From Enterobacter phage ZX14, in sequence record PP236086.1: a DNA stretch of 64,000 nucleotides, one strand, 5' to 3'. The translations under genes were made by a program, and so were the position numbers. The notes beneath the pieces are model-generated. The model was not told the origin of the DNA, did no database searches, and saw nothing but the letters and a program-made list of their open reading frames with translations. Positions 4,648-63,702 of the stretch are shown here, piece by piece; positions within the stretch are counted from its first letter, which is position 1, and each line of letters starts with the position of its first letter.

Positions 4648-4865
4648 GCCCTCAATGTTGCTTGTAAGATTTCGATTAAATCACGGGCGTGGTCTCGGTC
4701 TATATCGAACCCAAGGCCAGGCGTATTCATTTTAATACGAATGGTATTATCGTAATTAGGATAACAGACAGCTTGAATTTTCTGCCAGTGCTTGTCTGTC
4801 ACTAATTCTATTTTAACCTGGTGAAGCGTATCACCAGGACTATTGCTGTCTGTTCTTTTAATCAT
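4638..4865 (-). CDS. hypothetical protein
   Basis: 75-aa ORF. Its stop overlaps the start of the next ORF. Confidence 0.4.
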   Translation of the reverse strand: MIKRTDSNSPGDTLHQVKIELVTDKHWQKIQAVCYPNYDNTIRIKMNTPGLGFDIDRDHARDLIEILQATLRACE

Positions 4866-10494: not shown

Positions 10495-11121
10495 TTATGA
10501 GTATTTTAATTTAAGAAATTCAGAATCATTACTTGGAATCCATCCTTTCTTAAATTGTTTGACCATACTCTTGGCCGTTGTTTCACTAATATTTATACCG
10601 GATTTTATTAGACGTCGCCATCCACAATCACCGTATGTGTTATTAATTATAACATAATTGTCATAAGCAATATCACTAAGCTTCCAATCATCTGGATTTG
10701 CTCTGGAAGTTTTCCATGGGCGATAATCAGGACGATTCATATAATTTGAAGCTTTCATATTAGCTTGTACTTCAGGACGCTTAGCTGGATGTGAATCGCC
10801 GAAGACTCCAAATCCACCACCAGCGTAAACTAGATTAAAATAATCTTCATTATCTCGAGCAAGAACTTTAAGTTGTTCCTCACGTTCGACATTAATTATA
10901 TCATCTAATTCAGTTTCAGCAATTATATTAATTACAGGTCGTTCTTCTAACATTGCAATGTTAAATCGCTCTTGGGAACAAGATGACCAATATTCTTTAC
11001 CATGTGAATCAATTATAACACCGTTATCAAATAAGCAATTAGTTTTAGAACCAATGTATTTGAAAGGTTTTTGGCCATTCATCTGACGTTTAAGCCAGAT
11101 GAATTCATATACAATGTTCAA
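10495..11121 (-). CDS. putative GIY-YIG homing endonuclease (seg-like)
   Basis: The N-terminus IVYEFIW…(14 aa)…YIGSKT fits the GIY-(10-15)-YIG module. It sits at the 32/59 junction where T4 carries segG. Confidence 0.55.
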   Translation of the reverse strand: MNIVYEFIWLKRQMNGQKPFKYIGSKTNCLFDNGVIIDSHGKEYWSSCSQERFNIAMLEERPVINIIAETELDDIINVEREEQLKVLARDNEDYFNLVYAGGGFGVFGDSHPAKRPEVQANMKASNYMNRPDYRPWKTSRANPDDWKLSDIAYDNYVIINNTYGDCGWRRLIKSGINISETTAKSMVKQFKKGWIPSNDSEFLKLKYS

Positions 11122-32346: not shown

Positions 32347-34530
32347 TTACTCACCCATGATTTTTACAATTTCAGCTACAGCATTGCCTTCCATATTATA
32401 TCGATTACGCATATATTCGGAGACAACGATATTTTCGCCTTCAAACTTTTTGATACGGTCAGCAGCACGTTTGTCGGCATATTCATTTAACTTACGTACG
32501 ATATGCAACCCATTATAAACTTGGTCTTTATGGAGTGGATTCGTGTAAGCAATAATGTTTACTGGGTTCAACCAAGACCTTAATGCAAACAGATTTTTAG
32601 CTTCTTTAGAAGTTTTACCAGATTCAGTGAGATACTTCATCAAGAAACTGAGTTCAGGATATTTCTCAATATGTCTGGTGTAATTATAAGCTCGTCCACT
32701 TGTAGCAGTATAGTAGTCATAATCAACTTCATCAACCAGCTCTACAAATTTATCACTGATTGCAATCAGCATATCTTGACATTGGTCTAACTTAATAATT
32801 TTCTTCTGGAGCTGTGGGCGAACAATATGGAACTCTGTGATACCTAATACATCTGCGCACTGGCAAATACCACCAAAGTTGTTCCATACACCATACTCAG
32901 GTTCCATTGATACATAGTTATGGCCATTCTTAAACACTACCCAACCTTCGATATCTTCGGCATCAGCAGCATTGTAGAACAATTCTTCTTCAGCCCATGA
33001 ACCTTCTTTAGTTTTGTACCAACGAACTGCACTTGGTGCTTTTGGCTTAGGCTGATATTCACGCTGAACAACCACTACGTAATCTTCTACAGCAGCAAAG
33101 AATTCAGACGTGTATTTGATAGTTACTGGGTCTTCACCCATTTGAATCAATACGTCAGGTAGAGTGTTCATTTCCAGTTCTGATTCCGGATTCACAAACA
33201 GAATTTCTTCACCACCGTCCGGCAGCCATGGATTCTCTTCAAGAATTTTCTTGGCCTTTTCATCTTTAGACCAACGAATTGCAGCCAGAGCACGAACTGC
33301 AGGCAAACGTTGTTTCTTGCAGTCATCAATGATAATAGTCAAAGATTTACGTTGGGTGCCAAACATATAATTAACACCAATACCACCTCGACCGCCATTA
33401 GACTTCAGACGTTTCATTTTAGGGTCCGAACATACTTCATATACAACACCTGCATCAATGAAACGACTCTTAACATCATACTTAGCATAAAGCTGATTAT
33501 ACGTTCTGCCATTACAAAGTTTCTGATGGGTGTTTTGAAGCATACGGTTTGCATTATAGCCTAGACCACCTACTTCACGAATAACCTTACGTTCGTGGGT
33601 ACTTTCACGCCATTCTTTCAGGTCTTCTTCCATCACGCGTTTATCAAGATTAATAACACGAGATTTGATGTTTGCGATAGTCTGTTCATCAAGTGACAGT
33701 TCTTCACGTGACGCTGCGATATCCAGTTCGCCTAATGGGAACTTAATGAATACGACATCATTACGAGCGCCAACCCAAGTTTCACCAAGACCAGGAACAT
33801 CATTCAATGGATAAACTATAGAACCGTATACAGCAAATAGACCAGAACGTTCTTCATAAGTATAGTCGGTGTCTGGAATTGCATAGTACTCGTCGAATTC
33901 TGGGAAGAAACGTGGCTCAAGTTTAGAACCAACCAGATTTACTTTTGATTCGCCAAATGGGCGAACAACATATTTGATTTCATCTTTCCAACGCTGGATA
34001 TCTGCCGTTTTAACCGGGACCGTAATTTCCAGACCAGTTTTGTCATCTTCTTTCATATCTTCTTCGAACAGAAGACGAATAACAGGTTCGCCATTATCAA
34101 GCATTGCCGTGTAGCCGTACACTTTACCTTCATGATAAGAAACAACGGTAAACGTATCTGTGTAGCTAAATGGAGATTTAGAACCAAGGCCTAATGCACC
34201 GATGAAGTCATTAGAGTTGTTCTTAGTTGATGCAAAGTAAGTCGTGTACAGGTTTTCCAGACCATCTTTAGACAGACCTGGACCGAAGTCACGAATAATG
34301 AAACGTGGGTCCATCTGACCCGGTACGTTAATCTGGAATGCACCTTCAAAGCCATTCAACTTATGGGCGTCAAGACAGTTACATGCCAGCTCGCGAACGA
34401 TTGCACGAATCTTGTTTTTGTAAAGACCAGAAGAAAGGATTTTAAATGCCTTTGCACTTGTGGTGATTTTAAACTTGGTGTTTGCACCCTTACTGCCTAA
34501 TACTACTTCATCATCGCCTTGGATAATCAT
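32347..34530 (-). CDS. rIIA: rIIA protein (GHKL ATPase-like N-terminus)
   Basis: 727 aa with an N-terminal HATPase_c-like motif (IRAIVRELACNCLDAH, DFGPG). Size and position match T4 rIIA at 725 aa. Confidence 0.9.
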   Translation of the reverse strand: MIIQGDDEVVLGSKGANTKFKITTSAKAFKILSSGLYKNKIRAIVRELACNCLDAHKLNGFEGAFQINVPGQMDPRFIIRDFGPGLSKDGLENLYTTYFASTKNNSNDFIGALGLGSKSPFSYTDTFTVVSYHEGKVYGYTAMLDNGEPVIRLLFEEDMKEDDKTGLEITVPVKTADIQRWKDEIKYVVRPFGESKVNLVGSKLEPRFFPEFDEYYAIPDTDYTYEERSGLFAVYGSIVYPLNDVPGLGETWVGARNDVVFIKFPLGELDIAASREELSLDEQTIANIKSRVINLDKRVMEEDLKEWRESTHERKVIREVGGLGYNANRMLQNTHQKLCNGRTYNQLYAKYDVKSRFIDAGVVYEVCSDPKMKRLKSNGGRGGIGVNYMFGTQRKSLTIIIDDCKKQRLPAVRALAAIRWSKDEKAKKILEENPWLPDGGEEILFVNPESELEMNTLPDVLIQMGEDPVTIKYTSEFFAAVEDYVVVVQREYQPKPKAPSAVRWYKTKEGSWAEEELFYNAADAEDIEGWVVFKNGHNYVSMEPEYGVWNNFGGICQCADVLGITEFHIVRPQLQKKIIKLDQCQDMLIAISDKFVELVDEVDYDYYTATSGRAYNYTRHIEKYPELSFLMKYLTESGKTSKEAKNLFALRSWLNPVNIIAYTNPLHKDQVYNGLHIVRKLNEYADKRAADRIKKFEGENIVVSEYMRNRYNMEGNAVAEIVKIMGE

Positions 34531-35336: not shown

Positions 35337-37178
35337 TTAACTCATCCAAACTTTACGTGGAGCCGGGTCTTTACCTAACAACATCTCGAATTGTTCTTTC
35401 CAATCATCCGGAAGTTGAACAACATCATACTTAGGATTCATAATCATCTGCTTATATTCAGATTTCTGAAGTGAACCAAGTCCTTTGATGTATCGAATAG
35501 AATGTTTAGGTAATTTGTCTTTAGCCGCTTCATATTCAGGTAGATCATAGAACCATTTTTGTTCTTTACCAATCTGAGCAATGATAACAGGAGTTTTAAC
35601 AAATCGTACTCGACCTTCTTTATAAAGCTGTGGCCATTGGGTAAAGAATGCAAGCAGTGATGGATAAATTGAACCGGTTCCATCGACATCAGCATCAGTC
35701 ATGATAGCAATATTGCGATAACCCATCGAGCTGATATCTTCATCACCAATCGTCAGACCTGTGATAGCACAGATATCAAAAGCTTCTTTGTTCTTCATGA
35801 TATCAACACCAGACATACCCCATGTGTTCATGAACTTACCACGTAATGGATAACCACCATGCAGTTCACGGTCACGGACTTCAATCAGATAGCCAATTGC
35901 TGAATCGCCTTCCGTCAAGAACAATGTTGTGTCAGCATCTTTACCATAAAGGTTTGCTTTAATATGCTTTTGAACTTTTGCTTTAGCAGCTTTCTTATTG
36001 GCTTTAGTTTCAGCAGCCTTTTCGGCGGCTAATTTACGAGCCAATGCAGCTTCAACGATAGGCATAATAAGGCCTTCGTCTTTCAAAATAGCATTAGCAA
36101 TTTTCTTAGCATCAATTTGAATATGAGCACGAATTTCACCGAACGGCGAAGTCAGACGTTCTTTAGTCTGAGAATCGAAACGCATGTTGCTCATATCACG
36201 AATGAACATCAGCATCGTCATACATTCTTTAACACGTGCTTTACTTACTTCGATGCCTTTATATTTCTTCTTAATACCTGGCAGAAGATGTTCACAGATA
36301 TCATCGAAAACACATTCAACATGATGACCGCCGTTTTTAGTATGAATGTTGTTCACATAAGTCAGATGACGGAAACCATCAGGGCTAGTAGCAAAAGACA
36401 TCGATACTTTATCTGTCTCTTGAATTACAACATTTTCACCAAACTGTTTAGCAAACTTCTTAAAGTTGCCATCTACTTTCTTACCACAGAAGGTGAATTG
36501 AATATCAGGGAAAACTACTGCCAGAGTTTGAAGGCGGTCTAAAGTAATATCACGGTAAACTTCACTGAAGCCGTTTGTTTCAAAATGGCTGAAATCTGGA
36601 ATGAAAGAAACAATTGTACCAGTCTTAGCTTTAACAAATTCTTTCTTAGAAGCCGGAACAATATCCCAACTTTTATTTTCCATACCATTAGAGCAACGTA
36701 CTACAATCTCATTCTTACCATCACAGGTGGCGCCTGCGAACGTTACTGAGAAGATATTAGTTAAACTACTGCCAACACCGTTCATGCCACCTGTCTTACG
36801 TTCAGCGTCATCGCCAAAGTTACCGCCAGCTTTTGGAATAGTCCATGCTGCTACAGGACCTGGAAGTTCAGCACCGGTTTGGTCGACAACCATCGCTTGA
36901 GGAATGCCACGCCCGTTGTCTTCGACGATAACTTTATTGCCTTTAAAATCTACATCTATTTTGTTTGCAAATTTAAAATTGGTACGAATGGCTTCATCGA
37001 CAGAGTTATCAATAATTTCATCAATTAGTTTTACCAACCCTGGGACATAAGTTACTGATTGGAATTTACCAAATAGAAAACGCTCGTGCGCTTCATTTGC
37101 ACTAGAGCCGATGTACATCCCACTACGCTTTTTAATATGTTCAACGTCAGACAATACTTTAATTTCGTTCTTAATCAT
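35337..37178 (-). CDS. 39: DNA topoisomerase II large subunit (GyrB-like), contiguous 39+60 form
   Basis: 613 aa with an N-terminal GHKL ATPase (…IDNSVDEA…EDNGRGIP…) and a C-terminal TOPRIM. No gene 60 split, no mobA. Confidence 0.9.
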   Translation of the reverse strand: MIKNEIKVLSDVEHIKKRSGMYIGSSANEAHERFLFGKFQSVTYVPGLVKLIDEIIDNSVDEAIRTNFKFANKIDVDFKGNKVIVEDNGRGIPQAMVVDQTGAELPGPVAAWTIPKAGGNFGDDAERKTGGMNGVGSSLTNIFSVTFAGATCDGKNEIVVRCSNGMENKSWDIVPASKKEFVKAKTGTIVSFIPDFSHFETNGFSEVYRDITLDRLQTLAVVFPDIQFTFCGKKVDGNFKKFAKQFGENVVIQETDKVSMSFATSPDGFRHLTYVNNIHTKNGGHHVECVFDDICEHLLPGIKKKYKGIEVSKARVKECMTMLMFIRDMSNMRFDSQTKERLTSPFGEIRAHIQIDAKKIANAILKDEGLIMPIVEAALARKLAAEKAAETKANKKAAKAKVQKHIKANLYGKDADTTLFLTEGDSAIGYLIEVRDRELHGGYPLRGKFMNTWGMSGVDIMKNKEAFDICAITGLTIGDEDISSMGYRNIAIMTDADVDGTGSIYPSLLAFFTQWPQLYKEGRVRFVKTPVIIAQIGKEQKWFYDLPEYEAAKDKLPKHSIRYIKGLGSLQKSEYKQMIMNPKYDVVQLPDDWKEQFEMLLGKDPAPRKVWMS

Positions 37179-46411: not shown

Positions 46412-47926
46412 TTAGACAATTGTATCTTTTAAGAAGGATGCAAACAGAGAACCACGACGAGCATAACCAGCATCGTTAGGATGCACAAGGTCATGCGAAG
46501 TGTATTCTTCAGCATTTTCTTTAGTAATCCAGCCTTGGACGTCAACAAACTTCAGTGAATGTTTTTCAGCCTGTTCCATTACAGCCGTACGAATCTTATT
46601 AATTGCTTCTGTTTCACCTTGCGGCGTAGCAGGACCAATTAAAATGACCGGGACTGTAGGGAAATTGGTTTTAACAATTTCAAGAGCAGCGTCCATATTA
46701 GTCTTAAGTTCTTCTACTCTACCTGCTACAGAATCATTATAGCCTAAGCTAAAGATAATATAATCAGGAACTCTAGACAATGTCAGCAATTTATTGGTAA
46801 CACGAGTTGCTGGGACCCTTTCACCGGTAGAGGTCCAGCCAGAACCACCAATACCATCTGCTAATCCGTCTACGCCTAAATGGTCACACATAATACGGAA
46901 ATCGTTAAAGCTTGGCTGAGTTGCTTCGGTACCGAAGGTATATGAATCACCCATCTGCCATACGAATTTACGAGTACGTGGAGGCTTGGACAACGTATCA
47001 GAAGATGAACCTAAGTTCAAGCCGCCGAATGCACTGTTAACGCCTGCTAATGAATATGAGCGTGATTTACGTTCACCGCCCCAATCAACTAAATAGACAA
47101 ATGAAGAACCAGATGAATCAGTAGTTATGCTCTGTGTACCGACTCTTAACCCATCAACATAAAGCTCACAAATAGTATTAAGACCTGCTAATTTAATTTC
47201 AAATTTAGGAGAGTCAGTAACCCAGTTAGCTCTAAATTGTGTGCCATTTCCGATACCATTCCCACGATAACCAGAAGTAGAATCTTTTACATCAGAACCC
47301 CAATAATCGAAAGCAGTATCAGTACGTTCTTTAGAAACACCTGCATACATAGATGTTGCGTTAGTACCACGATAAGTAAGGTTGAATGTTGCACCTGTCC
47401 CTGTCGTTATATTAGCACCATTGTTTCCATTACCCGCTTCAGTAGCACAAGGGTTCGTAGGAGGAGTTGTGTATACACCACCTTGACGGACAGAAGCGGT
47501 TGTTATAGCACCTTCAGCACCTACTGCAGTAACACGAATTAATGTTGGCGCTGATTTAACTCCACCAGAAACATGAATAATATCACCAAACTTATAACCT
47601 GTACCACCATCAACAATTACTGCCGTATCTAAAGCACCACTACCTTTATAAAGATTCGTTGCAGGAGCAGGAGAAATAGGAGCAAATGGAGGGATAATTT
47701 CAGGAAGTTCTGGGATAATTGGTGGTATTACTTCGCCAAACATTACTTCGATATTATATTTTTGCCATTCTACATCCTGTCCTTTTTCAAAGACTGTAGA
47801 ATATAGTGGTTCTTCACTTAAAGAAAGGTTATAAAAAGAGCCTGCTATTTTATGAGCATTTGAATACACCGTAAAATAAACTGATACTTCTATACCCGAT
47901 CTTAACTTCAAATTTATATATTTCAT
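46412..47926 (-). CDS. Soc-domain fusion protein with C-terminal SGNH/GDSL hydrolase domain
   Basis: 504 aa. The N-terminal ~65 aa are homologous to the adjacent Soc (IEVSVYFTVYSNAHKIAGSFYNLSLSEEPLYSTV vs VEVSVAFKVYSDAHRIAGAHYQIFPSEEPAYADV). A Pro-rich linker and Gly/Thr/Asn-rich beta-like middle follow. The C-terminus has GDSYTFG (GDS block) and DLVHPNDAGY (DxxH). Confidence 0.8.
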   Translation of the reverse strand: MKYINLKLRSGIEVSVYFTVYSNAHKIAGSFYNLSLSEEPLYSTVFEKGQDVEWQKYNIEVMFGEVIPPIIPELPEIIPPFAPISPAPATNLYKGSGALDTAVIVDGGTGYKFGDIIHVSGGVKSAPTLIRVTAVGAEGAITTASVRQGGVYTTPPTNPCATEAGNGNNGANITTGTGATFNLTYRGTNATSMYAGVSKERTDTAFDYWGSDVKDSTSGYRGNGIGNGTQFRANWVTDSPKFEIKLAGLNTICELYVDGLRVGTQSITTDSSGSSFVYLVDWGGERKSRSYSLAGVNSAFGGLNLGSSSDTLSKPPRTRKFVWQMGDSYTFGTEATQPSFNDFRIMCDHLGVDGLADGIGGSGWTSTGERVPATRVTNKLLTLSRVPDYIIFSLGYNDSVAGRVEELKTNMDAALEIVKTNFPTVPVILIGPATPQGETEAINKIRTAVMEQAEKHSLKFVDVQGWITKENAEEYTSHDLVHPNDAGYARRGSLFASFLKDTIV

Positions 47927-48302: not shown

Positions 48303-48830
48303 TTAATAACCACGGTCTTGACGAGCAAAGTTTTCTGCGTTCTTCAGATGGTAAAGCTTGTAGATTTCTTCTGCGTCCATACCAAGAGCCATGAACTTAT
48401 TCAAGAAGAAATGAAGCTGATCAATGAGTTCGAATTTAATTTCAAGCTGGTCTTCAGGAGACAGGTCTTTAATCTTTTTAGCCTGCATTTCAACATGCCG
48501 TGCTTTCCATGGTTTCCAGACAGCAGACGCTTCTTTTTCACCATTGCTCATGCCACCGAGTGCAGTGTACAGTTCACGGGTTTCATCAGCAAGATAATCA
48601 TCTTGTGCACGCAGCCAAGCCAGAACTTCACCTGCGGTTTCCAGCGAATCTGGATGGCGATTGCTTTCTGGTTTGTCTTTAGCCAGACGAACCTGCAGAG
48701 ATTTCTGCATATCAAGCATTGCCTGCAGTGGGTCTTCATTGCCACGCAACATACCGTAATATCGTCCAGTCGCCTGGTCTAAAGCCGCTTTATCTTTTAC
48801 CAGTTGAGAACATTCGTTAAAGTGTGCCAT
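48303..48830 (-). CDS. 56: dCTP pyrophosphatase gp56 (MazG-like)
   Basis: Start at MAHFNEC with an AAGGAAAT Shine-Dalgarno. …GEKEASAVWKPWKARH…SPEDQLEIKFELIDQLHFFLN…FARQDRGY is near-identical to T4 gp56. Confidence 0.85.
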   Translation of the reverse strand: MAHFNECSQLVKDKAALDQATGRYYGMLRGNEDPLQAMLDMQKSLQVRLAKDKPESNRHPDSLETAGEVLAWLRAQDDYLADETRELYTALGGMSNGEKEASAVWKPWKARHVEMQAKKIKDLSPEDQLEIKFELIDQLHFFLNKFMALGMDAEEIYKLYHLKNAENFARQDRGY

Positions 48831-48875
48831 TTTATTTCCTTTCAATTCAAGTAGAGATTAATTATAACATTATGT

Positions 48876-53738: not shown

Positions 53739-54064
53739 CTTTTCTTCATATTAATTTCTTTAAGAGCTTCGTTAATTTGCATTGTAACACATTTTTCAAC
53801 ATGCTCTGCTAATTCGCCTTTACGCTCTTCGGAAGGAGTACCAAAATCTACGGTCACTTGACCTTTTGGAGAAATATCAATCTTTGTAACATAAACCATA
53901 TGGCTACTACCATCTGGGAGTGTTAACAAAATCTCCTGCATAACAGAACCCATGCTCTGTTTAATAATGTCTAAAGACTTCTCGTAATACTGAGGACCAC
54001 TAGGGCCCTCTTCGGTGTCTTTGACAAAGTTGTCCAGGTCGGACAGGTCTAAGTCATTACTCAT
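53723..54064 (-). CDS. 40: gp40-position protein
   Basis: Start at MSNDLDLSDL. Lies between uvsX and 41 as T4 gene 40. Confidence 0.5.
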   Translation of the reverse strand: MSNDLDLSDLDNFVKDTEEGPSGPQYYEKSLDIIKQSMGSVMQEILLTLPDGSSHMVYVTKIDISPKGQVTVDFGTPSEERKGELAEHVEKCVTMQINEALKEINMKKRWWKW

Positions 54065-55232
54065 TATCTTCTTCCATTTCGTCAAGAGCATTCTCAACAT
54101 CGGCTGCGGATGGTTTACCTTTCTTACCTAAGTCAGGAATTTTACTTGTCGCTTTAGCATTTAACAGGTCAGCAACAGCGTCATCAACTTCTTTAATAGA
54201 AGAGATTGCACCAAGTTTGTATTTGGTTTCGATTGCATCACGGAACGGTTTATGCTTAAACAGAGGACCCCAGAATTCAACATCATCTGTAGCCTTAGCA
54301 CGCCATGATTTTTCTTCCTGAACCATTTCACCGGTTTCTTCATCAAGGAATGAACGAGCATACCAGCCAGCTTTTGGTTTAACAACGAAACCGAGGTCTG
54401 TAGCTAGTTCAAGCAGACCACTGAATGGGTCAATACCACCTTTAAAGTTCACCGTAATCGGGAACGTGGATTTTTCTTGAACAGTACGAGACTTTTCAGC
54501 TTTCAGAGTGAAGTCATAACCAGTGAGTTCAGTGCCATCTTTAATCTGGCGTTTAGAGATATAGAATACCGTTGACGCAGAATAAAGAATACCAGTACCG
54601 CCACCCATGATTTCTTTAGGGTACATACCACCGATTTCCATTGCCGTATGGTTAATCGCTACGCACGGAATATCTTTAATAGTTAGATATGGCGTTACGA
54701 TACGGAACAGAGATTTCAGTGACTTAGCACGGGACATATCACCAACTTCTTTTTCGTCCAGAGCATCTTGTGTTTCTTTCTTAGATGCAGTGTTACCGAT
54801 GGAGTCGATGAAGATAATAACCTTTTCACCACGCTGGATTTCTTCCAGTTGGTTGGTCATATCAATTTTCAGCTTCTCTACTGACTGGATTGGCGTATGA
54901 ACCACTCGTTCCAGGTCTACACCCATTGAACGGAAGTAAGATTCGGAAGCACCAAATTCAGAGTCATAGAACAGACAAATTGCATCTGGATATTTCTTCA
55001 TATATGCGGCGACCATTGTCAAACCAAACAGAGTTTTAAAGTGTTTAGATGGCGCAGCGAAAATAGTCAGACCAGATTGTAAGCCAGTATTCAGACCACC
55101 ACCTAACGCAATGTTTAACATTGGGATACGAGTAGGGACTTCGTCACGACCGTTAAACAGTTTAGACTTAGTCAGATCAGCAGTCAGTTTAGTAGTAGAA
55201 GCTTTAATCAGGCGAGATTTTAAATCGGACAT
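54057..55232 (-). CDS. uvsX: UvsX recombinase (RecA homolog)
   Basis: 391 aa. MSDLKSRLIKAS…, Walker A, C-terminal acidic tail EMEEDNE. T4 UvsX is also 391 aa. Confidence 0.9.
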   Translation of the reverse strand: MSDLKSRLIKASTTKLTADLTKSKLFNGRDEVPTRIPMLNIALGGGLNTGLQSGLTIFAAPSKHFKTLFGLTMVAAYMKKYPDAICLFYDSEFGASESYFRSMGVDLERVVHTPIQSVEKLKIDMTNQLEEIQRGEKVIIFIDSIGNTASKKETQDALDEKEVGDMSRAKSLKSLFRIVTPYLTIKDIPCVAINHTAMEIGGMYPKEIMGGGTGILYSASTVFYISKRQIKDGTELTGYDFTLKAEKSRTVQEKSTFPITVNFKGGIDPFSGLLELATDLGFVVKPKAGWYARSFLDEETGEMVQEEKSWRAKATDDVEFWGPLFKHKPFRDAIETKYKLGAISSIKEVDDAVADLLNAKATSKIPDLGKKGKPSAADVENALDEMEEDNE

Positions 55233-55295
55233 TATATTTTTCCATTGGTCACCATTATATTTTTCTCACAGTTAGATTAGAAGGTAATTATATCA

Positions 55296-55427
55296 CTTTG
55301 GGTTTACAGCACGTTCTACACACGCCTTAGCCCATTTTTTATTATTTTGACGCTCAAAAAACAATAAAACAAATAGACCGCCTAGGCTAAGAAGACCTAG
55401 GCTAATAATAAAGATTAACGGGCCCAT
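55296..55427 (-). CDS. small membrane peptide (43 aa)
   Basis: MGPLIFIISLGLLSLGGLFVLLFFERQNNKKWAK… overlaps the 3' end of the kinase gene. Confidence 0.25.
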
Positions 55428-55966
55428 TTGATAATCATCGTAATCAAAGCATTACGCTCGTTTGCATTAAAACTTTTAATCTTGTTGTTGCCGTAATGGT
55501 TCAGCAATTGATAGATATGAACATCATTTGTATCTGCAAACTCTTCGAACAATGAGATGACCTTATTGAAACCTTCTGCAGACAAAGAAATCAAGTCATC
55601 TTCAAAGTCTTCGGTCATTTCATTACGAGTCAGAATGATTGGCAGAACACTATTATGTGTACAAAGACGATGGAAGTCTTCTTCATACATATTAAGAACA
55701 GACTCTTTCTCTCGTCGAATCATGCCATAAACCCAGTTTGAAATATAACCACGGTCTAACAGATAAATCTTAGATGGGTCTAAGTATTTCAACATTGTTT
55801 CGAAACAAGCCACTTCATTTCGTGACTTGATATCGAACCGTCCTTCAGAAGTACGTTTTGGGAATTCAATCTTTACATAACGGTCAGAGATTTCACAGAT
55901 ATCGCGAATAAGAGATGTTTTACCTGCGTTATCTGCACCATCAACTAAAATAATTTTGGTTTTCAT
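55415..55966 (-). CDS. P-loop kinase (nucleoside/nucleotide or sugar kinase-like)
   Basis: 183 aa. Walker A ILVDGADNAGKTS at the N-terminus. First gene of the sugar-nucleotide cassette. Confidence 0.55.
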   Translation of the reverse strand: MKTKIILVDGADNAGKTSLIRDICEISDRYVKIEFPKRTSEGRFDIKSRNEVACFETMLKYLDPSKIYLLDRGYISNWVYGMIRREKESVLNMYEEDFHRLCTHNSVLPIILTRNEMTEDFEDDLISLSAEGFNKVISLFEEFADTNDVHIYQLLNHYGNNKIKSFNANERNALITMIIKWAR

Positions 55967-56862
55967 TCGTTAATTACCACGTCACTGTACATAGGAATAT
56001 TATACGGCGAAGAAATGAAAGCGCCAAAATAAATGAATTCTGCTAAACCAGGATGGAATACCTTTTCAGGGTTCTCGAAATACTGGATATGTGGTCTGCC
56101 TTTCAGTACTTGATAATATTCTGCTTTGGTCAGTTTAGTCAAACGAATCACAGCTTCTTCTGGATAATGACTACGGTCGAAACTATCATTAGGGTCTGTG
56201 ATATAAACCGGTTGCTGAGTTTGAATTGCACATTCAACCACTTGGTTGAAACGATAACATGGGTCACTGATACGGAATGGATGGAAGATACCATTCACAT
56301 GTACCGCTTCAAGACCCGCAGCGTAGCGCTCGATTACGCTAGGACGCACGACCTTTTGGTCTACAATAATCTTATAGTCATCAGCCCCGTGTTTAACCAG
56401 GACGTCCTTCTGACACTGATTCAATACTGTCGTATACTTACTACGATTTACTGATGCAACATCTTCTTCAATGAATTGGTCGATATAGAAAAGAGGCTTT
56501 TCTGGATTCATTGTGATGTTAAAGTTGAACCATACCGGATGACGACCCTTATAACCTGTGATATCTGTTACCAATCCAACAACATCATAATATTCTACTA
56601 ATGAGTCAACGACCCATTGGTTTTCTTCCCAGAAATGTTTACGAGTTTCGAAAGCATTTTCTTTATACCACAGAGGGATAAATTCGAACTCAGGGAACAA
56701 TTCACGAAGTTCATCTGCATCAGAAGCATTTTTAGGAATAGCGATAATATCGCCAGCACGAGCACGGTTCAAATGAAGCTGAAGATTGCCGTCCTTCAGA
56801 ACGGCATATTCACCAGTTTCATGAGACCGCATACTATAAATTGGTACGCGGAGATGAGGCAT
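55963..56862 (-). CDS. hypothetical protein at the beta-glucosyltransferase position (candidate DNA glycosyltransferase)
   Basis: 299-aa ORF between uvsX and gene 42, where T4 has beta-gt. No similarity to T4 Bgt visible. Confidence 0.45.
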   Translation of the reverse strand: MPHLRVPIYSMRSHETGEYAVLKDGNLQLHLNRARAGDIIAIPKNASDADELRELFPEFEFIPLWYKENAFETRKHFWEENQWVVDSLVEYYDVVGLVTDITGYKGRHPVWFNFNITMNPEKPLFYIDQFIEEDVASVNRSKYTTVLNQCQKDVLVKHGADDYKIIVDQKVVRPSVIERYAAGLEAVHVNGIFHPFRISDPCYRFNQVVECAIQTQQPVYITDPNDSFDRSHYPEEAVIRLTKLTKAEYYQVLKGRPHIQYFENPEKVFHPGLAEFIYFGAFISSPYNIPMYSDVVINE

Positions 56863-57551
56863 TAGATAAAACCTTTCACATAATCAAAGTCACGCTCAAA
56901 TACATGAGCACTCACCATGGTGTGGGTATAATCACCCAGTTCAACACCACATTCTTTTGCAATGAATTCCATCAGTTTGCCTTGCAGATAGAAATCCAGC
57001 TGCATTACAATAGCACAGTTTTGTGACCGCATATGACAGTGAGTGTAAAGCTTACCTTCACGGATATAATACGTTACCGAGTCTGTACAAGGGTATTCAA
57101 GGGACTCGTCGCTATCTAAGAGCGCTTGGTCTTGTTCTTGGAGAATCTGGAACACAACACGTCTCGAGTTAGGCTTCTCTTTAAGCTCTTTAAGTAAGGC
57201 TGGGAGTTGGGCCACAATTCGAGGTCCATAGAAAGTGTTGAAGTTTGCAGGCAATACGTCACTTTTCGGCTTAGCAATGAACTTAGCAACATTTGGATAT
57301 TCCTTAAATGCTTCTTCTGCATCTGTACCGCCTGAAATCATGAACTGCCAGAATGCTTCAGCATATTCATAACTAATACGGTTGATACGTTCGTCTTTGA
57401 ATTTATAAGTGGATGGGTCTAATACACGAAGGGTCATTGAACCAATTTCATTACAACGGCCAATACGAGATTCAATTTCAAAATCAGGCAATTCAAGAAT
57501 CTTTTCGTTAGCCTGTTTAAATGCACTTTCAAAAGTAGAGCAAACAATCAT
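56862..57551 (-). CDS. 42: dCMP hydroxymethylase gp42 (ThyA-like fold)
   Basis: 229 aa with thymidylate-synthase-like blocks (…NSRRVVFQI…, …HCHMRSQNCAIVMQLD…, …HTMVSAHVFE…). Position as T4 gene 42. Confidence 0.65.
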   Translation of the reverse strand: MIVCSTFESAFKQANEKILELPDFEIESRIGRCNEIGSMTLRVLDPSTYKFKDERINRISYEYAEAFWQFMISGGTDAEEAFKEYPNVAKFIAKPKSDVLPANFNTFYGPRIVAQLPALLKELKEKPNSRRVVFQILQEQDQALLDSDESLEYPCTDSVTYYIREGKLYTHCHMRSQNCAIVMQLDFYLQGKLMEFIAKECGVELGDYTHTMVSAHVFERDFDYVKGFI

Positions 57552-57553
57552 TT

Positions 57554-57919
57554 TTATACCTCTGGAATATATGGTTCGGCTTTATGCAACAAATTGTTTT
57601 GCATAAGCATTTTAAATGTTGCAGGTGACATTGCCTTATCATCAATAATCCAATCATATCTTGGTTTATGAGTCAGCAATTCATGGTACTTCAGTCCAAT
57701 CTTTTCCAGATTCTTAAGAAGTGGAGGTAATATTTCCGAAGCGATTCGGTCTGGTCCAACACTCTCCATACCACGTGCAGTATACAGGACAATTGTATTA
57801 CCTTCGTCATACAGCTTATTAATCATGGACACCATTTCGGTGTCCGGTACGAAGTTTTCGTAATCACGGCCATTATCCCAGACCGTGATAGTATTATCAA
57901 TATCAAAACATAAACGCAT
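57554..57919 (-). CDS. HAD-superfamily phosphatase
   Basis: Start at MRLCFDIDNT (DxDxT motif I). TAATG coupling to the upstream gene. 121 aa. Confidence 0.6.
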   Translation of the reverse strand: MRLCFDIDNTITVWDNGRDYENFVPDTEMVSMINKLYDEGNTIVLYTARGMESVGPDRIASEILPPLLKNLEKIGLKYHELLTHKPRYDWIIDDKAMSPATFKMLMQNNLLHKAEPYIPEV

Positions 57920-59607
57920 TATCGAATTCGTTCCCATTGATGAGTGATATCGCCACCGATTGGTTTGTAGACTGCACCGGTTTCTTTATCGATGAGTTCC
58001 CACTTATCACTGTTCTTTGTGATAAGAGTTGCCGTAATAGCTTCTGGCAGGTCTTTAGCGACTGTACCGTCTTTCAACATACGGCCCATTTTACGTAATT
58101 GTTTAGTCAGCAGATACATGCCGTAGTAATAGGCTGAAACCGCTTTCAATGGGTTGTTCTTGAAATAACCACCGAGAGCAATCCAGATAATCGCTACAGC
58201 CAGATGGTGATGTTCGTTGAACGTGTCCATCTTTTCATATTTGTAGATTAATGGCTCGATATTAATATAAGCCTTTTCGCCTTCAATATTCAAACCACCC
58301 CATAAGGCATCTGCGTTAAATTCATCATACCCACTTACAGCATATAATACTTTTGCTTCATCATACAAGCGTGGACCATAAATCTTCGTGTTACCAAAAT
58401 AGCCGCGAGGGTCAATAAATTTAATATCGCCATCGATAAACGTAATCATCGTATTACTGAAGTTAGGGTCGCCATGAATAACATGATAACGTTTAGAATA
58501 TTGATAACGAACAAGATGGTTCAATGCCTGTTTCAACATTGGCACTAAACGACCGATTTTAATACCATTCACATGAGTAATCTTACCAAATGAATCAATC
58601 ACTGGCTGAATACTTGCACAACGGTCGATAACTTTATCATGGAATTCTTTCTTGAAATCGGCTTCTATTTCTTTACGGTCGACACTCTTACTCATTGCAT
58701 CTTCAAAACGAAGAGCATCAAGAATTTTATCAATCATACTGATACGAGCATTTGATTTCAATGTTTTGATATGCTCAAACATAGGCAGACCATGAATTCG
58801 TTCCATTTCAAATTCACCTGCTTCTTTATTGTAGTTAACGATTTGAGGAATCGAATTCGAATGAACAGAATAATACCATTTGACTTCATCTTCTTGAAGA
58901 GAACGGCCTTGTTCTGTTACTGCAATTTTAGTTACAGTATCTTCGTTTATTTCCACTGAATTAAAACTACGATTCAGTTCACGGTCTGCATGTGCATTAG
59001 CCAGTTTAGGCTTATCGCCTAAATCGATTAAATTCAGCAGTTCGGATTGACGCATTGATTCGCCATAAACGAAATCAACAAAGTCACGCCCTTCACAATG
59101 GTCATTGATTTCTTCTTTGGTTATGCCCATGAAGAATTCCCAGTCTTTAAACTGGTAAATGCCTACTACATTACCACCTGTTGCACCGACGTTACGAAGT
59201 GAATAACCGTCGAAATTATAACGGCATTCATCGCCCTTCGTATAAATGGCGTTCTCACCCCAAGACCATGAACCAAAGTCTGGGATAATGTCACACCAGT
59301 TCACGACGACATTATGACCATCCAGAATAGGATGTAATAATGCCAATGCATAAGCAGAACCATAAGATTCATCTACAGTCTGAACATTAATTTTCAGACC
59401 TTCTTGTTCTGCATAAGCTTCGACCATGCCCTGGAATTTAGAATGCACGACAACAATAACTTCATCTGCACCCAAATCAGTATAAATGGTCGCTAAGTTT
59501 TTGAGAATGGTGTCTTGTTTATAGTTCACAAGCACTTTAGGGATATGATGAGTGATTGGATATAAACGAGTAGCCAATCCAGCTCCGAGAATAACAGCCT
59601 TTTTCAT
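57919..59607 (-). CDS. bifunctional sugar-1-phosphate nucleotidyltransferase / kinase-like protein
   Basis: Start at MKKAVILGAGLATRLYPIT (GxGTRL NT-transferase signature). The C-terminal half has an aminoglycoside/choline-kinase-like HGDPNFSN motif. The six-frame ORF runs 97 codons further upstream into the SIS gene and was trimmed. Confidence 0.65.
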   Translation of the reverse strand: MKKAVILGAGLATRLYPITHHIPKVLVNYKQDTILKNLATIYTDLGADEVIVVVHSKFQGMVEAYAEQEGLKINVQTVDESYGSAYALALLHPILDGHNVVVNWCDIIPDFGSWSWGENAIYTKGDECRYNFDGYSLRNVGATGGNVVGIYQFKDWEFFMGITKEEINDHCEGRDFVDFVYGESMRQSELLNLIDLGDKPKLANAHADRELNRSFNSVEINEDTVTKIAVTEQGRSLQEDEVKWYYSVHSNSIPQIVNYNKEAGEFEMERIHGLPMFEHIKTLKSNARISMIDKILDALRFEDAMSKSVDRKEIEADFKKEFHDKVIDRCASIQPVIDSFGKITHVNGIKIGRLVPMLKQALNHLVRYQYSKRYHVIHGDPNFSNTMITFIDGDIKFIDPRGYFGNTKIYGPRLYDEAKVLYAVSGYDEFNADALWGGLNIEGEKAYINIEPLIYKYEKMDTFNEHHHLAVAIIWIALGGYFKNNPLKAVSAYYYGMYLLTKQLRKMGRMLKDGTVAKDLPEAITATLITKNSDKWELIDKETGAVYKPIGGDITHQWERIR

Positions 59608-59648
59608 TTTGTGTTCCTCATTAAATGGTACATCCATTGTACCATAAT

Positions 59649-59792
59649 TTAATTGAAGCAATTGTATTTGGCCTGGAGCCAGAGCATACACCAACCTATG
59701 ACTAATGTAGGAATCATTAGAGGTACAGTGATAGACCAATAAATTGTTAGTCCGAAGAAGGCTAACAGAAGGAATCCGGCTAAGTATTTCAT
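59649..59792 (-). CDS. small membrane protein (47 aa)
   Basis: MKYLAGFLLLAFFGLTIYWSITVPLMIPTLVIGWCMLWLQ…. Its ATG overlaps the SIS stop (ATGA). Confidence 0.35.
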   Translation of the reverse strand: MKYLAGFLLLAFFGLTIYWSITVPLMIPTLVIGWCMLWLQAKYNCFN

Positions 59793-60427
59793 TTCTCACC
59801 ACGGAGCTGAGCACCAAGTGCACCACCAGGGTGGAAGCGCAGGAAGTCGTCAGGAGTAAAACGACGTGCGGCTGAAAGGTTAATTGCAAAGGTATCAATT
59901 AGAGCCAAGAGCAGCGTCGTAGACATTGTAGGCGCTAATTTGTTGTCATCAATCTCAATAGCTCGACCAGTACAGAAATTGTAGTCGAACATCTTTAAGA
60001 TATCATCAGGTAGACTTGGATTACAATGAAGAAGAATCTGATTCACACCAGGACGAATACCACGCAGATGATTAACAACGCCTAACATTTCTTCAGTCTT
60101 ACCTGAACGAGAGATATGGACCAGCACATCATTAGGACCAATGAAACCAGCATCACCGTGTGAATAATGGCCTGTATTCAAATACATACTTGGAATACCA
60201 AGCGAGGCCATTGTTTCTGAAGCCTTAGTGGCGATGTTAGCGTTTTTACCTACACCAGTAATAATTACACGACCTTCATAATCGGACAAACCAGGGACGC
60301 CTAGGACTGCCAGGATTTCAAGATAATTTCTATAATCTTTCTCAACTATAGATGTCAGTATATCAAGAGCTTGTGATTGAAGTTCTAATGCATTTTTAGC
60401 TCGGTCAATTGGATTGATGTGGTTCAT
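59789..60427 (-). CDS. SIS-domain sugar-phosphate isomerase (KpsF/GutQ arabinose-5-phosphate isomerase-like)
   Basis: 212 aa. SIS signature …RVIITGVGKNANIATKASETMASLGIPS… and HISRSGKTEE. Confidence 0.7.
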   Translation of the reverse strand: MNHINPIDRAKNALELQSQALDILTSIVEKDYRNYLEILAVLGVPGLSDYEGRVIITGVGKNANIATKASETMASLGIPSMYLNTGHYSHGDAGFIGPNDVLVHISRSGKTEEMLGVVNHLRGIRPGVNQILLHCNPSLPDDILKMFDYNFCTGRAIEIDDNKLAPTMSTTLLLALIDTFAINLSAARRFTPDDFLRFHPGGALGAQLRGEK

Positions 60428-60941
60428 TACGTTTTACCCTATTACATTCATTTTCAGTTTTAAGAGCTTTGGCCTGAAGCTTTGTGTAGCTCTTTTTCCA
60501 AAGGTCAAAAGCTGTACTGTATTCATAAGATTTACGATAATCGCTTCGTGATGGGCGTTTATCAATAAGTTTATTATATTCTTCTTTGAACGTATCATTG
60601 ACAAAACGCTCACAGTATTCTGCAATACGAGTGTTACGGTCAATTTCATGGTTCTTGGCTACAGCACGAAGATAATCTTCACGTGGTTGTGCGTTACGAC
60701 GTTCTTCATCAAGCTTGGCTGCTAATTCAGCTTGAGCAGCACAGTTCTTACCACATTGATTTGGAGCTCTGGTATACGTAATGCCTGTACCGTTACGCCA
60801 TTGGACTTCACCTGTACGTGCGTCAACTTCAGCCTGGGTCCTAATCTTTCCTACTTCAGACGCATTGTAGATAGGCCCTTGAGGCATCTGACAACCGGCC
60901 AGAAGAGTAGCAGCTGCTATTAAAGCAATTTTAAATTTCAT
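60405..60941 (-). CDS. putative lipoprotein at the imm position
   Basis: Start at MKFKIALIAAATLLAGC (lipobox LAGC) with a GAGGA Shine-Dalgarno. Lies between the SIS gene and gene 43. Confidence 0.55.
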   Translation of the reverse strand: MKFKIALIAAATLLAGCQMPQGPIYNASEVGKIRTQAEVDARTGEVQWRNGTGITYTRAPNQCGKNCAAQAELAAKLDEERRNAQPREDYLRAVAKNHEIDRNTRIAEYCERFVNDTFKEEYNKLIDKRPSRSDYRKSYEYSTAFDLWKKSYTKLQAKALKTENECNRVKRNEPHQSN

Positions 60942-60996
60942 TTTAATCCTCAAAAAGTGTTAGGCCATTTTATCACAGCCTAACACATTTGTAAAC

Positions 60997-63702
60997 TTAG
61001 AAATCGAACATATCGAACAGACTTGCTTTCTTTTCATAGTCAATTTTAGCTGCATCGGTGAAAGCAGTTAAAGGTTTGACGAATGTTTTCTGGAACAACG
61101 TGTTGTAGTCCATCCAAGCCAGAACTTGGTCACGAATCTGAATTGGTAGTTCAATTCCTGAAGGCCATGCAATAGACGTTTCACCAAATGGGTTACCTTC
61201 ACGAAGTGGAAGAGTATAAACCTTTTCACCATCTACAATTTGTGGAACGGTGAGGTCGCCTTTGGTTGCTCGCATATAAGCTAGAACACCTTTGATATGG
61301 CCAGGGCATTTATAACCTGGGAAACCATTATCATTATACTTCTGAATGTTGTTCGCTGAAGATACACCTGCGATGCTGATATAATTCAGTTCATTGAATT
61401 CTTTGTTGAACTCTTTGAAATATTCTTGCAGACTTCCTTCACCTTCTTGAAGCATACGACGAATACATTCTTTTAGTGCTTTCTGAACAGCTTTTGGAGT
61501 ACTTGATTTCTGAGTTTCAAGTCCCATGATTTTCAGTTTTGGTTCAACGAAACGAGTACCTTCCATGTCCCATACGTTCAGGGCATATCGTTTCTTGCCG
61601 GTCCAGAAACCACCAATACCATCAGAACCAAGTGGTGGTCCTGCGATAGCTTCTCGGTCCATGAACATCAAATGTTCTCTGTTGTTCATGTATTCACACA
61701 TTTCACGGAAGCCAGCATCAATAGCAGGTTCCATACGTTCACGTGCGAACTTATCTAAGAAGTCTACATAATGGTTCGTGTCGCGGAATTTTTCCATTCC
61801 TACTTTCTCAAGGATTTTATCAGCCTTCACATAAATGGAGTCAGTATCACCATAAAGTACGAATGCTTCATTTTCTGTACCAAGAGTTTTGTTCAGATAT
61901 TCATTAACCTTACGTTCAATCCACTGCAATGCCATCTGACCAAAGGTTGTGATAGCCGTAGCATTTCGAAGGTCGTAATAACGGAACCATACGTTACCAA
62001 GTGCACCATAAAGTGAGTTGATAAGCAACTTACGGTTAATCTGAGCAGTGTTACCTGCAACTTCACAACGTTCTGCTTTGAACAACATTGATTCTAATGC
62101 TTTCTGACTTAATTCGTGAAGTTTAGATTTAACTTCATCATTGAAGTCGAAACGGTAATCAACTTCAAATTCAGGCTTATCACCTTTAGTCGTTTTCTTA
62201 GCTTCTTTAATAAGTTCTTGGTTACGCTGAGCAGCCAGCATATAACCTTTATGCTCTTTACGCTGTTTAAAGACCTTAGTGATTTCAACCGGAACTACGC
62301 CTTGGAAGCTCTTATCGTACATCATACCATTTGGAGAACATGAATACACATCAGATGGGCGTGGAGCTGTACCAGCGATATATTCAGCCAATGGATGTAC
62401 TTTGAACTGACCAACTAATGTTTCTGGGCTGATATTAACTTGACGAATGATACTTGGGTACAGAGATGTCAAGTCAAAGCTCATTACATATTTGTAGGCA
62501 TTCGGAATCGGTTCTTTAACAAATGCACCAGGATAAGGCAGAACTGGGTGTGACTGCATTTGTGGAATAACTTTCTTCTGGTCTTTAAGTGAGTTAAAGA
62601 TGATTGCGTCCCATGTTTTGATAGGACTAAACACAGATTGAATCTGCATCTTCGCATAATAACCCATTGACAAGCTCAGGTTAATGAACTGTCGTTTCAT
62701 ATCAATTTGAATAACACGATAAACGTCGATAATGTTATAACTGATATAACGTTGGTGGTTAGTTTCACGCAACTTAGAAATAGGACCATCATATGGCAGT
62801 TTACCGACCTTCAATTCAAATTCAGAGACATAGTCTAAAGAATAAGATGGCTGGTTGGTGAAACTAAATTTCTTGTACAGGTCAATATAATCCAGCATAC
62901 TGATACCGTACAGTTGGATAATCTGACGGGCGCCACCATACATACTTTCAACTTCTTTAATACGAACACGACGGTGAGGAGACAGACGTTTAGCGGTCTT
63001 TTCACTGAAGATATTCTTCAAACGGTTATACACGTACGGCACGTCAAATGCCTCAACGTTCCAACCTGTTAAAACAACAGGAGTTTTCTGTTCCCAAAGG
63101 TTCAGATATTCCAGAAGAAGTTCTTTTTCATCATCGAATGGCATATAGACAATTTTATCTGCGATTTCTTCAGGCAGAGCATCACCACCTTCTTCTTCAA
63201 GTTTGCGAGCCAGTTTCAATGACCATTCTTTGACATTACCATATGGACCACCTAAAAGGTCAAACACATAGAACTTATCATCGATAGAATCATAATGGGT
63301 AATCGCATCGATTGGATGCTTAGCTTCAGCCGGTTCAGGGAACCCGTCAGGAGATGTTACCTCGATGTCAAAGTTTGCTACACGAATTTTAGTCTGGTCG
63401 TAATGGATTTCACCACGATAAGTGTCGCTGATATAAGCCAACTTATAATCGTCCATGCCTAGTGCTTCAAGACCCATGTCGTCCATACGACGCATCCAAT
63501 CTTTAGCATCACGCATGCCTGGGAAAGTTTTCTTGACACAATATTTGCCATAGATATCTTTATATTCTGTAGGCTCATTAGAGTGCATGAACATACATGG
63601 AGCATAAGTTACTTCACGAACTTGTTCGCGACCATTACTATCGATATAACGTTCGAAGATACTGTCACCGAATTGTTCGACTGTCAAATAAAATTCTTGC
63701 AT
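60997..63702 (-). CDS. 43: DNA polymerase gp43 (family B)
   Basis: 901 aa. Exo motifs (FDIE…), SLYPSII, YGDTDS. Near-identical blocks to T4 gp43. Confidence 0.95.
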   Translation of the reverse strand: MQEFYLTVEQFGDSIFERYIDSNGREQVREVTYAPCMFMHSNEPTEYKDIYGKYCVKKTFPGMRDAKDWMRRMDDMGLEALGMDDYKLAYISDTYRGEIHYDQTKIRVANFDIEVTSPDGFPEPAEAKHPIDAITHYDSIDDKFYVFDLLGGPYGNVKEWSLKLARKLEEEGGDALPEEIADKIVYMPFDDEKELLLEYLNLWEQKTPVVLTGWNVEAFDVPYVYNRLKNIFSEKTAKRLSPHRRVRIKEVESMYGGARQIIQLYGISMLDYIDLYKKFSFTNQPSYSLDYVSEFELKVGKLPYDGPISKLRETNHQRYISYNIIDVYRVIQIDMKRQFINLSLSMGYYAKMQIQSVFSPIKTWDAIIFNSLKDQKKVIPQMQSHPVLPYPGAFVKEPIPNAYKYVMSFDLTSLYPSIIRQVNISPETLVGQFKVHPLAEYIAGTAPRPSDVYSCSPNGMMYDKSFQGVVPVEITKVFKQRKEHKGYMLAAQRNQELIKEAKKTTKGDKPEFEVDYRFDFNDEVKSKLHELSQKALESMLFKAERCEVAGNTAQINRKLLINSLYGALGNVWFRYYDLRNATAITTFGQMALQWIERKVNEYLNKTLGTENEAFVLYGDTDSIYVKADKILEKVGMEKFRDTNHYVDFLDKFARERMEPAIDAGFREMCEYMNNREHLMFMDREAIAGPPLGSDGIGGFWTGKKRYALNVWDMEGTRFVEPKLKIMGLETQKSSTPKAVQKALKECIRRMLQEGEGSLQEYFKEFNKEFNELNYISIAGVSSANNIQKYNDNGFPGYKCPGHIKGVLAYMRATKGDLTVPQIVDGEKVYTLPLREGNPFGETSIAWPSGIELPIQIRDQVLAWMDYNTLFQKTFVKPLTAFTDAAKIDYEKKASLFDMFDF

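Follow-up and report, generated by a model that had tools for sequence, protein, structure and literature searches.

The 64,000-nt stretch of Enterobacter phage ZX14 analysed here (PP236086.1; "the window" below, with about 110 kb of the genome lying outside it) carries, between uvsX and the DNA polymerase gene 43, a cassette that is very probably a minimal form of the Straboviridae arabinosyl-5-hydroxycytosine hypermodification cluster, acting in a phage whose DNA would be mono-arabinosylated. An earlier reading of the DNA letters alone (the sequence-only reading) had recognised a sugar-nucleotide cassette at this place and proposed that it puts arabinose on 5-hydroxymethylcytosine (hmC). That feature is real and correctly placed, and most of the guessed pathway holds; the identity of the base is wrong. 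Domain calls were made with Pfam, PHROGs and NCBIfam profiles, and proteins of phages RB69 and HY126 were run as tblastn queries against the window. The cassette consists of the following open reading frames (ORFs; lengths in amino acids, aa).

55415-55966, minus strand: thymidylate-kinase-like (TMK-like) P-loop nucleotide kinase, 183 aa, homolog of RB69 gp45
55963-56862, minus strand: GT-B fold glycosyltransferase, 299 aa, base-proximal arabinosyltransferase of the RB69 gp46:47 / DLP3 gp79 family
56862-57551, minus strand: 5-hydroxy-dCMP synthase of the ThyA superfamily, flavin/O2-dependent, 229 aa, homolog of RB69 gp48
57554-57937 or 57554-57919 (start ambiguous), minus strand: HAD-family sugar phosphatase, 127 or 121 aa, homolog of RB69 gp51 / HY126 AfhF
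57919-59607, minus strand: bifunctional fusion, 562 aa from the first in-frame ATG, which follows a long TTG-initiated extension, homolog of RB69 gp52:53 (ORF53_52c) / HY126 AfhE
59649-59792, minus strand: hydrophobic peptide of unknown function, 47 aa, homolog of RB69 gp54 / HY126 XAN60480
59789-60427, minus strand: single-domain SIS arabinose-5-phosphate isomerase (ribulose-5-phosphate to arabinose-5-phosphate), 212 aa, homolog of RB69 gp55

The whole block lines up with published phage clusters, with proteins 62-98% identical, far more closely than chance would allow. The RB69 gp45-gp55 / HY126 Afh cluster of Mosigvirus occupies the same position between uvsX and gene 43 with the same gene order and orientation, at 62-82% protein identity, and a comparison with the RB69 arabinosylation genes ORF by ORF, which the sequence-only reading had proposed, is one-to-one collinear down to the architecture of the fusion (562 versus 561-562 aa). 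All ORFs named in that reading lie where it put them on the minus strand, and their domain calls are upheld by Pfam, PHROG, NCBIfam and motifs; its list of the cassette was sound as far as it went and lacked the conserved 47-aa membrane ORF.

The three sugar enzymes of the pathway are all present. The isomerase is 70% identical to RB69 gp55, carries the motif GVGKN and matches PHROG 5670 "arabinose 5-phosphate isomerase" (E 1.8e-105), the NCBIfam models KpsF/GutQ (E 1.6e-32) and KdsD (E 6e-30), and PDB entries 3etn, 5uqi and 2xhz. In the fusion, which is 71% identical to HY126 XAN60479 over 562 aa and matches PHROG 4098 at E 2.6e-276, the N-terminal half is a sugar-1-phosphate nucleotidyltransferase (Pfam NTP_transferase at residues 3-100, E 8.5e-10) and the C-terminal half an APH/choline-kinase-like sugar kinase with the motifs HGDPNFSN and IDPRG; its PDB sequence matches are cytidylyl-, guanylyl- and uridylyltransferases. 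The two domains are those that had been called from the letters, while the nucleotidyltransferase motif, then written GxGTRL, is literally GAGLATRL. The phosphatase, likewise correctly called and uncertain only in its start (57937 or 57919), is 63% identical to RB69 gp51 and HY126 XAN60478, shows the motif DIDNT, matches PDB 9iqw (E 4.6e-49) and 1xpj (E 5.6e-9), and fits the NCBIfam models for capsule biosynthesis phosphatase / HAD-IIIA. The 47-aa peptide (PHROG 3610, E 5e-26) is 62-76% identical to its RB69 and HY126 counterparts and hydrophobic enough for two membrane spans.

The TMK-like kinase stands beside the transferase, in a genome that also encodes a dCTPase. It is 72% identical to RB69 gp45 and HY126 XAN60473 and contains a Walker A motif, GADNAGKT, together with LLDRGY. 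A PDB sequence search with it gave nothing useful, and it is assigned from its match to PHROG 761 "thymidylate kinase" (E 4.7e-42), from these motifs and from the fold published for RB69 gp45, to which it is 72% identical. Its substrate may be 5-hydroxy-dCMP (5hodCMP) or arabinosylated 5hodCMP.

The arabinosyltransferase sits inside the cassette and is the 299-aa ORF. The sequence-only reading had listed this ORF as an unknown; it has indeed no Pfam or NCBIfam match, but it is now identified as a GT-B arabinosyltransferase, so that the transferase is not missing from the pathway. Sequence-based methods fail to recognise this protein. A large protein database contains 91 homologs, 0/91 with a Pfam domain, and those with a named source are all from T4-like phages. 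The figures listed for it are 17.0 for BshA, 16.3 for PimA, 14.4 for the 366-aa HY126 glycosyltransferase 9iqz and 13.5 for T4 alpha-glucosyltransferase 1y6f. It is identical at 69% over 299 aa to RB69 gp46:47 / HY126, at 98.7% to the IME523 protein and at 48% to that of Thanatos-2; RB69 gp46 and gp47 are a single gene split by a sequencing error, which is intact in HY126. In the window, as expected of an RB69/HY126/DLP3-type cluster, this member of the gp46:47 / DLP3 gp79 family adjoins the hydroxylase. Two distant homologs of 37-39% identity (P0084 and P0085) are found on contigs of 348,873 and 383,404 bp, which could be jumbo phage or cellular; these hint that the family extends beyond T4-like phages.

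The cassette has only this one transferase. RB69 and DLP3 add a second and a third arabinose with extra GT-B enzymes, and RB69 gp3, the second arabinosyltransferase, is encoded far from the main cluster, so the same system might produce di- or poly-arabinosylated DNA in ZX14 through a further transferase somewhere in the 110 kb beyond the window. This version is improbable. RB69 gp3 has no tblastn match in the 64-kb window at E<0.1, and no GT-B transferase of the RB69 gp3 / DLP3 gp76-77 kind is found there. The window includes the syntenic site of gp3, from rIIA (32347-34530) to gene 39 (35337-37178), and all that lies there is a pair of overlapping ORFs, each about 100 aa long. Across the database, a tblastn search with gp3 retrieves 212 phage records, from Escherichia, Shigella, Acinetobacter and a few other phages; none is from Enterobacter, Kosakonia or Edwardsiella phages, and none is a Kanagawavirus. 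The family of the first transferase occupies 370 places in 367 phage records, one per genome in nearly all. Among the window ORFs of at least 180 aa there is no other glycosyltransferase-like one, the rest having T4-type assignments or being small unknowns; the suggestion that the cassette might feed a second modification thus finds no support in the window. Thanatos, with one transferase of the 299-aa family, is reported to be mono-arabinosylated. The single transferase, the empty gp3 site and this precedent together point to mono-arabinosyl-5-hydroxycytosine as the predicted form in the DNA of this phage.

The base itself is decided by the 229-aa enzyme, which the sequence-only reading took for a retained gene 42. 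This ORF belongs to the thymidylate-synthase family (Pfam E 4e-15) and shares a superfamily with T4 gene 42 but, judged from its alignments, is not an ortholog of it: it is 81-82% identical to RB69 gp48 versus 25% to T4 gp42 over 151 aa. Its PDB matches are 9iqu/9iqc/9ir2 at E 2e-128, the next being MilA at E 3e-13, and T4 dCMP hydroxymethylase is not among the best 60 of 100 matches. Aligned with E. coli ThyA, T4 gp42, RB69 gp48 and the HY126 protein, the enzyme has the catalytic Cys in LEYPC (L143E), the substitution N177D in QLD, and Asn at the position of E. coli ThyA D169 in RSQN (D169N). That position keeps Asp in T4 gp42 (RSND), in E. coli ThyA (RSCD) and in the window's own td (RSVD). 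RB69 gp48 and DLP3 gp80 turn dCMP into 5-hydroxy-dCMP with a bound flavin, and the oxygen comes from O2, as seen by 18O2 labelling (Lee et al. 2026, PMC13326640). D169N is the diagnostic signature: 9/9 further D169N homologs tested made 5hodC, the 5-hydroxylated deoxycytidine (PMC13326640). The virion DNA of RB69 contains mono- and di-arabinosylated 5-hydroxycytosine, in which an oxygen links the sugar straight to C5, and the genera listed there with a syntenic cluster include Kanagawavirus (PMC13326640). Independently, 5-ara-dC and 5-ara-ara-dC were found in the Mosigvirus NP (PMC13390438).

The other possibility for the base is hmC carrying arabinose, with the ThyA-family enzyme acting as a dCMP hydroxymethylase of the gp42 type. 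Arabinosyl-hmC was proposed for RB69 in 2018 (Thomas et al. 2018, PMC6024577), the ortholog is annotated as dCMP hydroxymethylase in many GenBank records, and the enzyme shares with T4 gp42 both the thymidylate synthase family and the changes N177D and L143E. Set against its 82% identity to a maker of 5hodCMP and its D169N signature, these points leave arabinosyl-hmC very unlikely; furthermore, two later papers (PMC13326640, PMC13390438) call the RB69 assignment erroneous, one of them stating that RB69 was "erroneously identified" in this respect (PMC13390438). The step from gene 42 to hmC is rejected on the PDB matches, D169N and the two identities. The earlier argument that genes 42 and 56 are both present, and the DNA hence contains hmC, rested on the 2018 model, since revised; its gene 56 is indeed there, and it breaks on the identity of the ThyA-family enzyme. 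What is predicted in place of arabinosyl-hmC is 5-hydroxycytosine bearing an ether-linked arabinose at C5.

In the proposed pathway, gp56 dCTPase would remove dCTP and yield dCMP, which the ThyA-like enzyme would hydroxylate at C5 with flavin and O2 to 5-hydroxy-dCMP. Kinases (a gp1-type dNMP kinase encoded outside the window, and perhaps the TMK-like kinase) would phosphorylate it up to the triphosphate, which the polymerase of the phage would insert instead of C. In parallel, the SIS isomerase would convert ribulose-5-phosphate into arabinose-5-phosphate, the C-terminal kinase domain of the fusion would make arabinofuranose-1,5-bisphosphate, the HAD phosphatase would take off the 5-phosphate, and the N-terminal nucleotidyltransferase domain would form UDP-arabinofuranose. 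The 299-aa transferase would then put arabinose on the 5-hydroxyl by an ether-type O-glycosidic bond. The order of the sugar steps follows HY126, where AfhE converts arabinofuranose-5-phosphate (Araf-5-P) into Araf-1,5-P2, the Mg-dependent HAD protein AfhF yields Araf-1-P, and the N-domain of AfhE makes UDP-Araf (He et al. 2026, as cited in PMC13326640). The sequence-only reading was right in seeing an RB69-type route to activated arabinose for DNA hypermodification; it had the phosphatase act before the kinase, whereas in the homologues, according to the same citation, the kinase comes first. Phosphatase-then-kinase is also the order of an earlier table in PMC13326640, at odds with the biochemistry that is cited there from He et al. 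2026.

That the sugar genes serve a role other than DNA, for example in host Kdo/lipopolysaccharide (LPS) or capsule through arabinose-5-phosphate, and leave the DNA with unglycosylated 5-hydroxycytosine, is extremely unlikely, for although the isomerase is related to KdsD/KpsF and the phosphatase fits "capsule biosynthesis phosphatase" models, these genes are interleaved with the hydroxylase and the GT-B transferase in one co-oriented packed block with 2-nt and overlapping junctions, and in RB69, HY126, DLP3 and others the homologous blocks go together with DNA that is arabinosylated.

For the arabinosyl-5-hydroxycytosine cluster the evidence within the window is homology, motifs, fold and synteny, and the hydroxylase activity and the order of the sugar steps are known from 62-82%-identical homologues; what the DNA of this phage contains, what the TMK-like kinase does, and whether the first sugar goes onto DNA or onto the nucleotide are what we infer. 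Several points weigh against it. As far as found, DNA chemistry is on record neither for this phage nor for any Kanagawavirus. UDP as the presumed nucleotide carrier is taken from a homolog. The first-step transferases of DLP3 were inactive in vitro on DNA with 5-hydroxycytosine (5hoC-DNA) and UDP-Ara (PMC13326640), so that the first arabinose may go onto either DNA or a nucleotide. And the part of the genome beyond the window could encode an unrelated second transferase.

The setting of the cassette is that of an ordinary T4-like phage. Over 55200-61000, megablast gives 95.3% DNA identity to Kosakonia phage 305, 94.0% to Enterobacter phage vB_EclM_Q7622 in a single unbroken piece and 92.5% to vB_EhoM-IME523, and the same relatives appear over 30000-54999 at 91.5-93.6%. 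By these DNA identities the window belongs to Kanagawavirus (Tevenvirinae), with the three phages in the same genus. PHROG matches in the window make up an ordinary T4-type early region with nrdB, nrdA, td, frd, gp32, gp59, tail fibres, motA, gp52, denB, rIIB, rIIA, gp39, dexA, dda, srd, modA, gp56 and gp61, and gp41 and uvsX are also there (ORF list, tblastn). The base composition of the cassette is uniform with its flanks, and the cassette is therefore no recent foreign island. Besides the cassette genes, the following features bear on it.

54057-55232: uvsX, one flank of the cassette
60997-63702: DNA polymerase gp43, the other flank
4862-5737: td, the thymidylate synthase of the window, with the motifs RSVD and PFN
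48303-48845, minus strand: gp56 dCTPase, outside the cassette, 68% identical to RB69 gp28 (gene 56), PHROG 173 NTP pyrophosphohydrolase E 1.6e-39
59636-59660, minus strand: MotA-box-like middle-promoter consensus just upstream of the bifunctional gene

The neighbours uvsX and gene 43, and with them the place of T4 beta-gt, are as the sequence-only reading gave them. The genes form a co-oriented, tightly packed minus-strand block whose junctions overlap or lie 0-2 nt apart; one example is TAAAAATG, which spans the phosphatase stop and the ATG that follows, with GAGGT located within the upstream gene. The promoter-like sequence TGCTTCAATTAAATTATGGTACAAT fits TGCTTNA-N11-13-TANNNT, a pattern with 8 matches in the window versus 3.15 expected; as a consensus match only, it is weak evidence. 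A sigma-70 promoter scan was not used as evidence, with 25 found versus a shuffled expectation of 19.7.

Several further observations concern the surroundings. Between the isomerase and the DNA polymerase, a minus-strand gene (60405-60953) that overlaps the isomerase start by 23 nt encodes a predicted lipoprotein of 182 aa with a signal peptide and LLAGC lipobox. Its family is PHROG 1754, of unknown function, and it resembles T4 imm.1 only faintly (E 0.019); a superinfection-exclusion role, given its location at the T4 imm/imm.1 place, is a guess. Just downstream of the DNA polymerase stop, at 60957-60995 on the minus strand, a hairpin with a 12-bp stem is followed by TTTTT and overlaps a sigma-70-like TTTACA-17-TAAAAT with TG; from these consensus matches only, it may be a terminator/promoter boundary ahead of the lipoprotein gene and the cassette. 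At the other end, adjoining uvsX, there is a very hydrophobic 44-aa mini-ORF (55293-55427, minus strand) that is annotated in Kosakonia phage 305 and has no family match. A 504-aa "head decoration" gene (46412-47926, minus strand; Hoc-like, and hoc in the CIP9 annotation) lies between modA and gene 56, while T4 hoc sits elsewhere, and a homing endonuclease is found at 10495-11121, between gp32 and gp59.

Within the genus, a further pair of genes is variably present. In CIP9 (L007:2858-4260) and Entb_45 (L010:2501-3909), two extra genes lie between the hydroxylase and the phosphatase, where the window has a 2-nt junction (57551-57554). The first encodes a 79-aa type II chorismate mutase (Pfam CM_2 E 2.4e-10, above threshold; PDB 1ybz E 3.5e-8) and the second a Peptidase_U32 family protein of 388-390 aa (Pfam E 2.7e-11); RB69 gp50 is also a U32 protein (E 7.4e-11), with a weak UbiU match. 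RB69 gp49 as the counterpart of the Kanagawavirus chorismate mutase was rejected, there being no similarity and no Pfam match. No remnants of the CIP9 chorismate mutase or U32 gene are seen in the window by tblastn. The window phosphatase and the first ~77 nt of the hydroxylase gene (63% aa, 73% nt; 57474-57602 and on over the HAD gene, 57554-57937) are much more diverged from CIP9 than the flanking cluster genes (~85-88%), and this local divergence at the gap suggests, on the alignment, that a segment was replaced by recombination rather than cleanly deleted.

The chorismate mutase is found in 51 phage records, standing beside a ThyA homolog and/or a U32 gene in every match listed; its carriers are phages of Klebsiella, Serratia (including LC53 and 92A1), Yersinia, Erwinia, Pectobacterium, Shewanella (Thanatos), Morganella and Providencia. 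U32 homologs are found in 222 phage records, and the organisms named among the matches listed are all Enterobacterales or Shewanella phages. Phages of Acinetobacter (57 transferase records) and Rhizobium (17) are not among the U32 matches listed, each having at most two U32 records. Acinetobacter and Rhizobium are aerobes. Correlation with the oxygen lifestyle of the host is imperfect, as Escherichia phages have 177 transferase versus 137 U32 records, about 40 thus being without U32. The product of chorismate mutase is prephenate. Those cellular U32 proteins that have been characterised hydroxylate in a prephenate-dependent, O2-independent way; they are TrhP (ho5U34 of tRNA), RlhA (ho5C2501 of 23S rRNA) and UbiU/UbiV (ubiquinone) (PMC6599085, PMC5727448, PMC10990095). 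Since the ThyA-like hydroxylase needs O2, the U32 hydroxylases do not, and chorismate mutase supplies prephenate, the pair is a plausible anaerobic route. Tentatively, and with more doubt than confidence, we suggest that it forms an O2-independent, prephenate-dependent route to 5-hydroxycytosine that backs up the ThyA-like enzyme, like the TrhO/TrhP dual pathway, with the window phage as a natural minimal variant. If this is true, DNA hypermodification would fail in the absence of oxygen in the window phage and in those relatives that lack U32. For gp50, Lee et al. use the label "sugar or heterocycle reductase", and chorismate and prephenate are unmentioned there (PMC13326640); in a literature search that covered papers other than He et al. 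and Mahler et al., none was found that links the pair to 5-hydroxycytosine.

The system as such is already known: it was published in 2018 and 2025-2026, with Kanagawaviruses named as carriers, and Q7622, IME523 and Kosakonia phage 305 are public examples of the layout with one transferase and no U32. The value for the window is a corrected annotation, in which the gene called "42 / dCMP hydroxymethylase / thymidylate synthase" becomes a cytosine C5 hydroxylase, the "hypothetical" 299-aa gene an arabinosyltransferase, and arabinosyl-5-hydroxycytosine is to be expected in the DNA. In homologous phages the modification shields DNA from many type II restriction enzymes and some CRISPR systems, leaves it open to GmrSD/BrxU-type enzymes, and spoils nanopore basecalling (PMC13326640, PMC13390438, PMC12838424). 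The sole open lead is the chorismate mutase-U32 pair.

Among the known systems, the closest layouts are those of Q7622, IME523 and Kosakonia phage 305, whose cassette architecture is identical to that of the window, without U32 or chorismate mutase; their records annotate the cassette as hypothetical proteins, "thymidylate synthase" and "phosphoheptose isomerase", none correctly. Kosakonia phage 305 differs in a homing endonuclease (L003:4671-5330) between transferase and hydroxylase, where PEi20 has segC and the window has none. The Kanagawaviruses CIP9, Entb_45 and MY742 (Enterobacter) and PEi20 (Edwardsiella) have the same core genes plus the chorismate mutase and U32 genes. RB69 has gp49 and the U32-family gp50 between hydroxylase and phosphatase and gp3 near rIIA, all three of which are lacking from the window (no significant tblastn match for gp49 or gp50, nor for T4 imm at E<0.1), whereas the lipoprotein gene between isomerase and polymerase is found in the window, unlike in the RB69/HY126 cluster. 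The predicted product is mono-arabinosyl for the window, and mono- and di-arabinosyl for RB69. Shewanella phage Thanatos shares the fusion enzyme with the window and likewise has just one transferase, a member of the 299-aa family; it differs in its U32 and chorismate mutase genes. The T4 system (gp42, gp56, alpha-gt and beta-gt) makes glucosyl-hmC. As already noted from the letters alone, the window has no alpha- or beta-glucosyltransferase homolog (tblastn with T4 a-gt and b-gt, no match at E<0.1). T4 modifies C5 by folate-dependent hydroxymethylation and the window type by flavin/O2 hydroxylation, and the sugar differs as well and must come from enzymes of the phage, as the host lacks UDP-arabinose.

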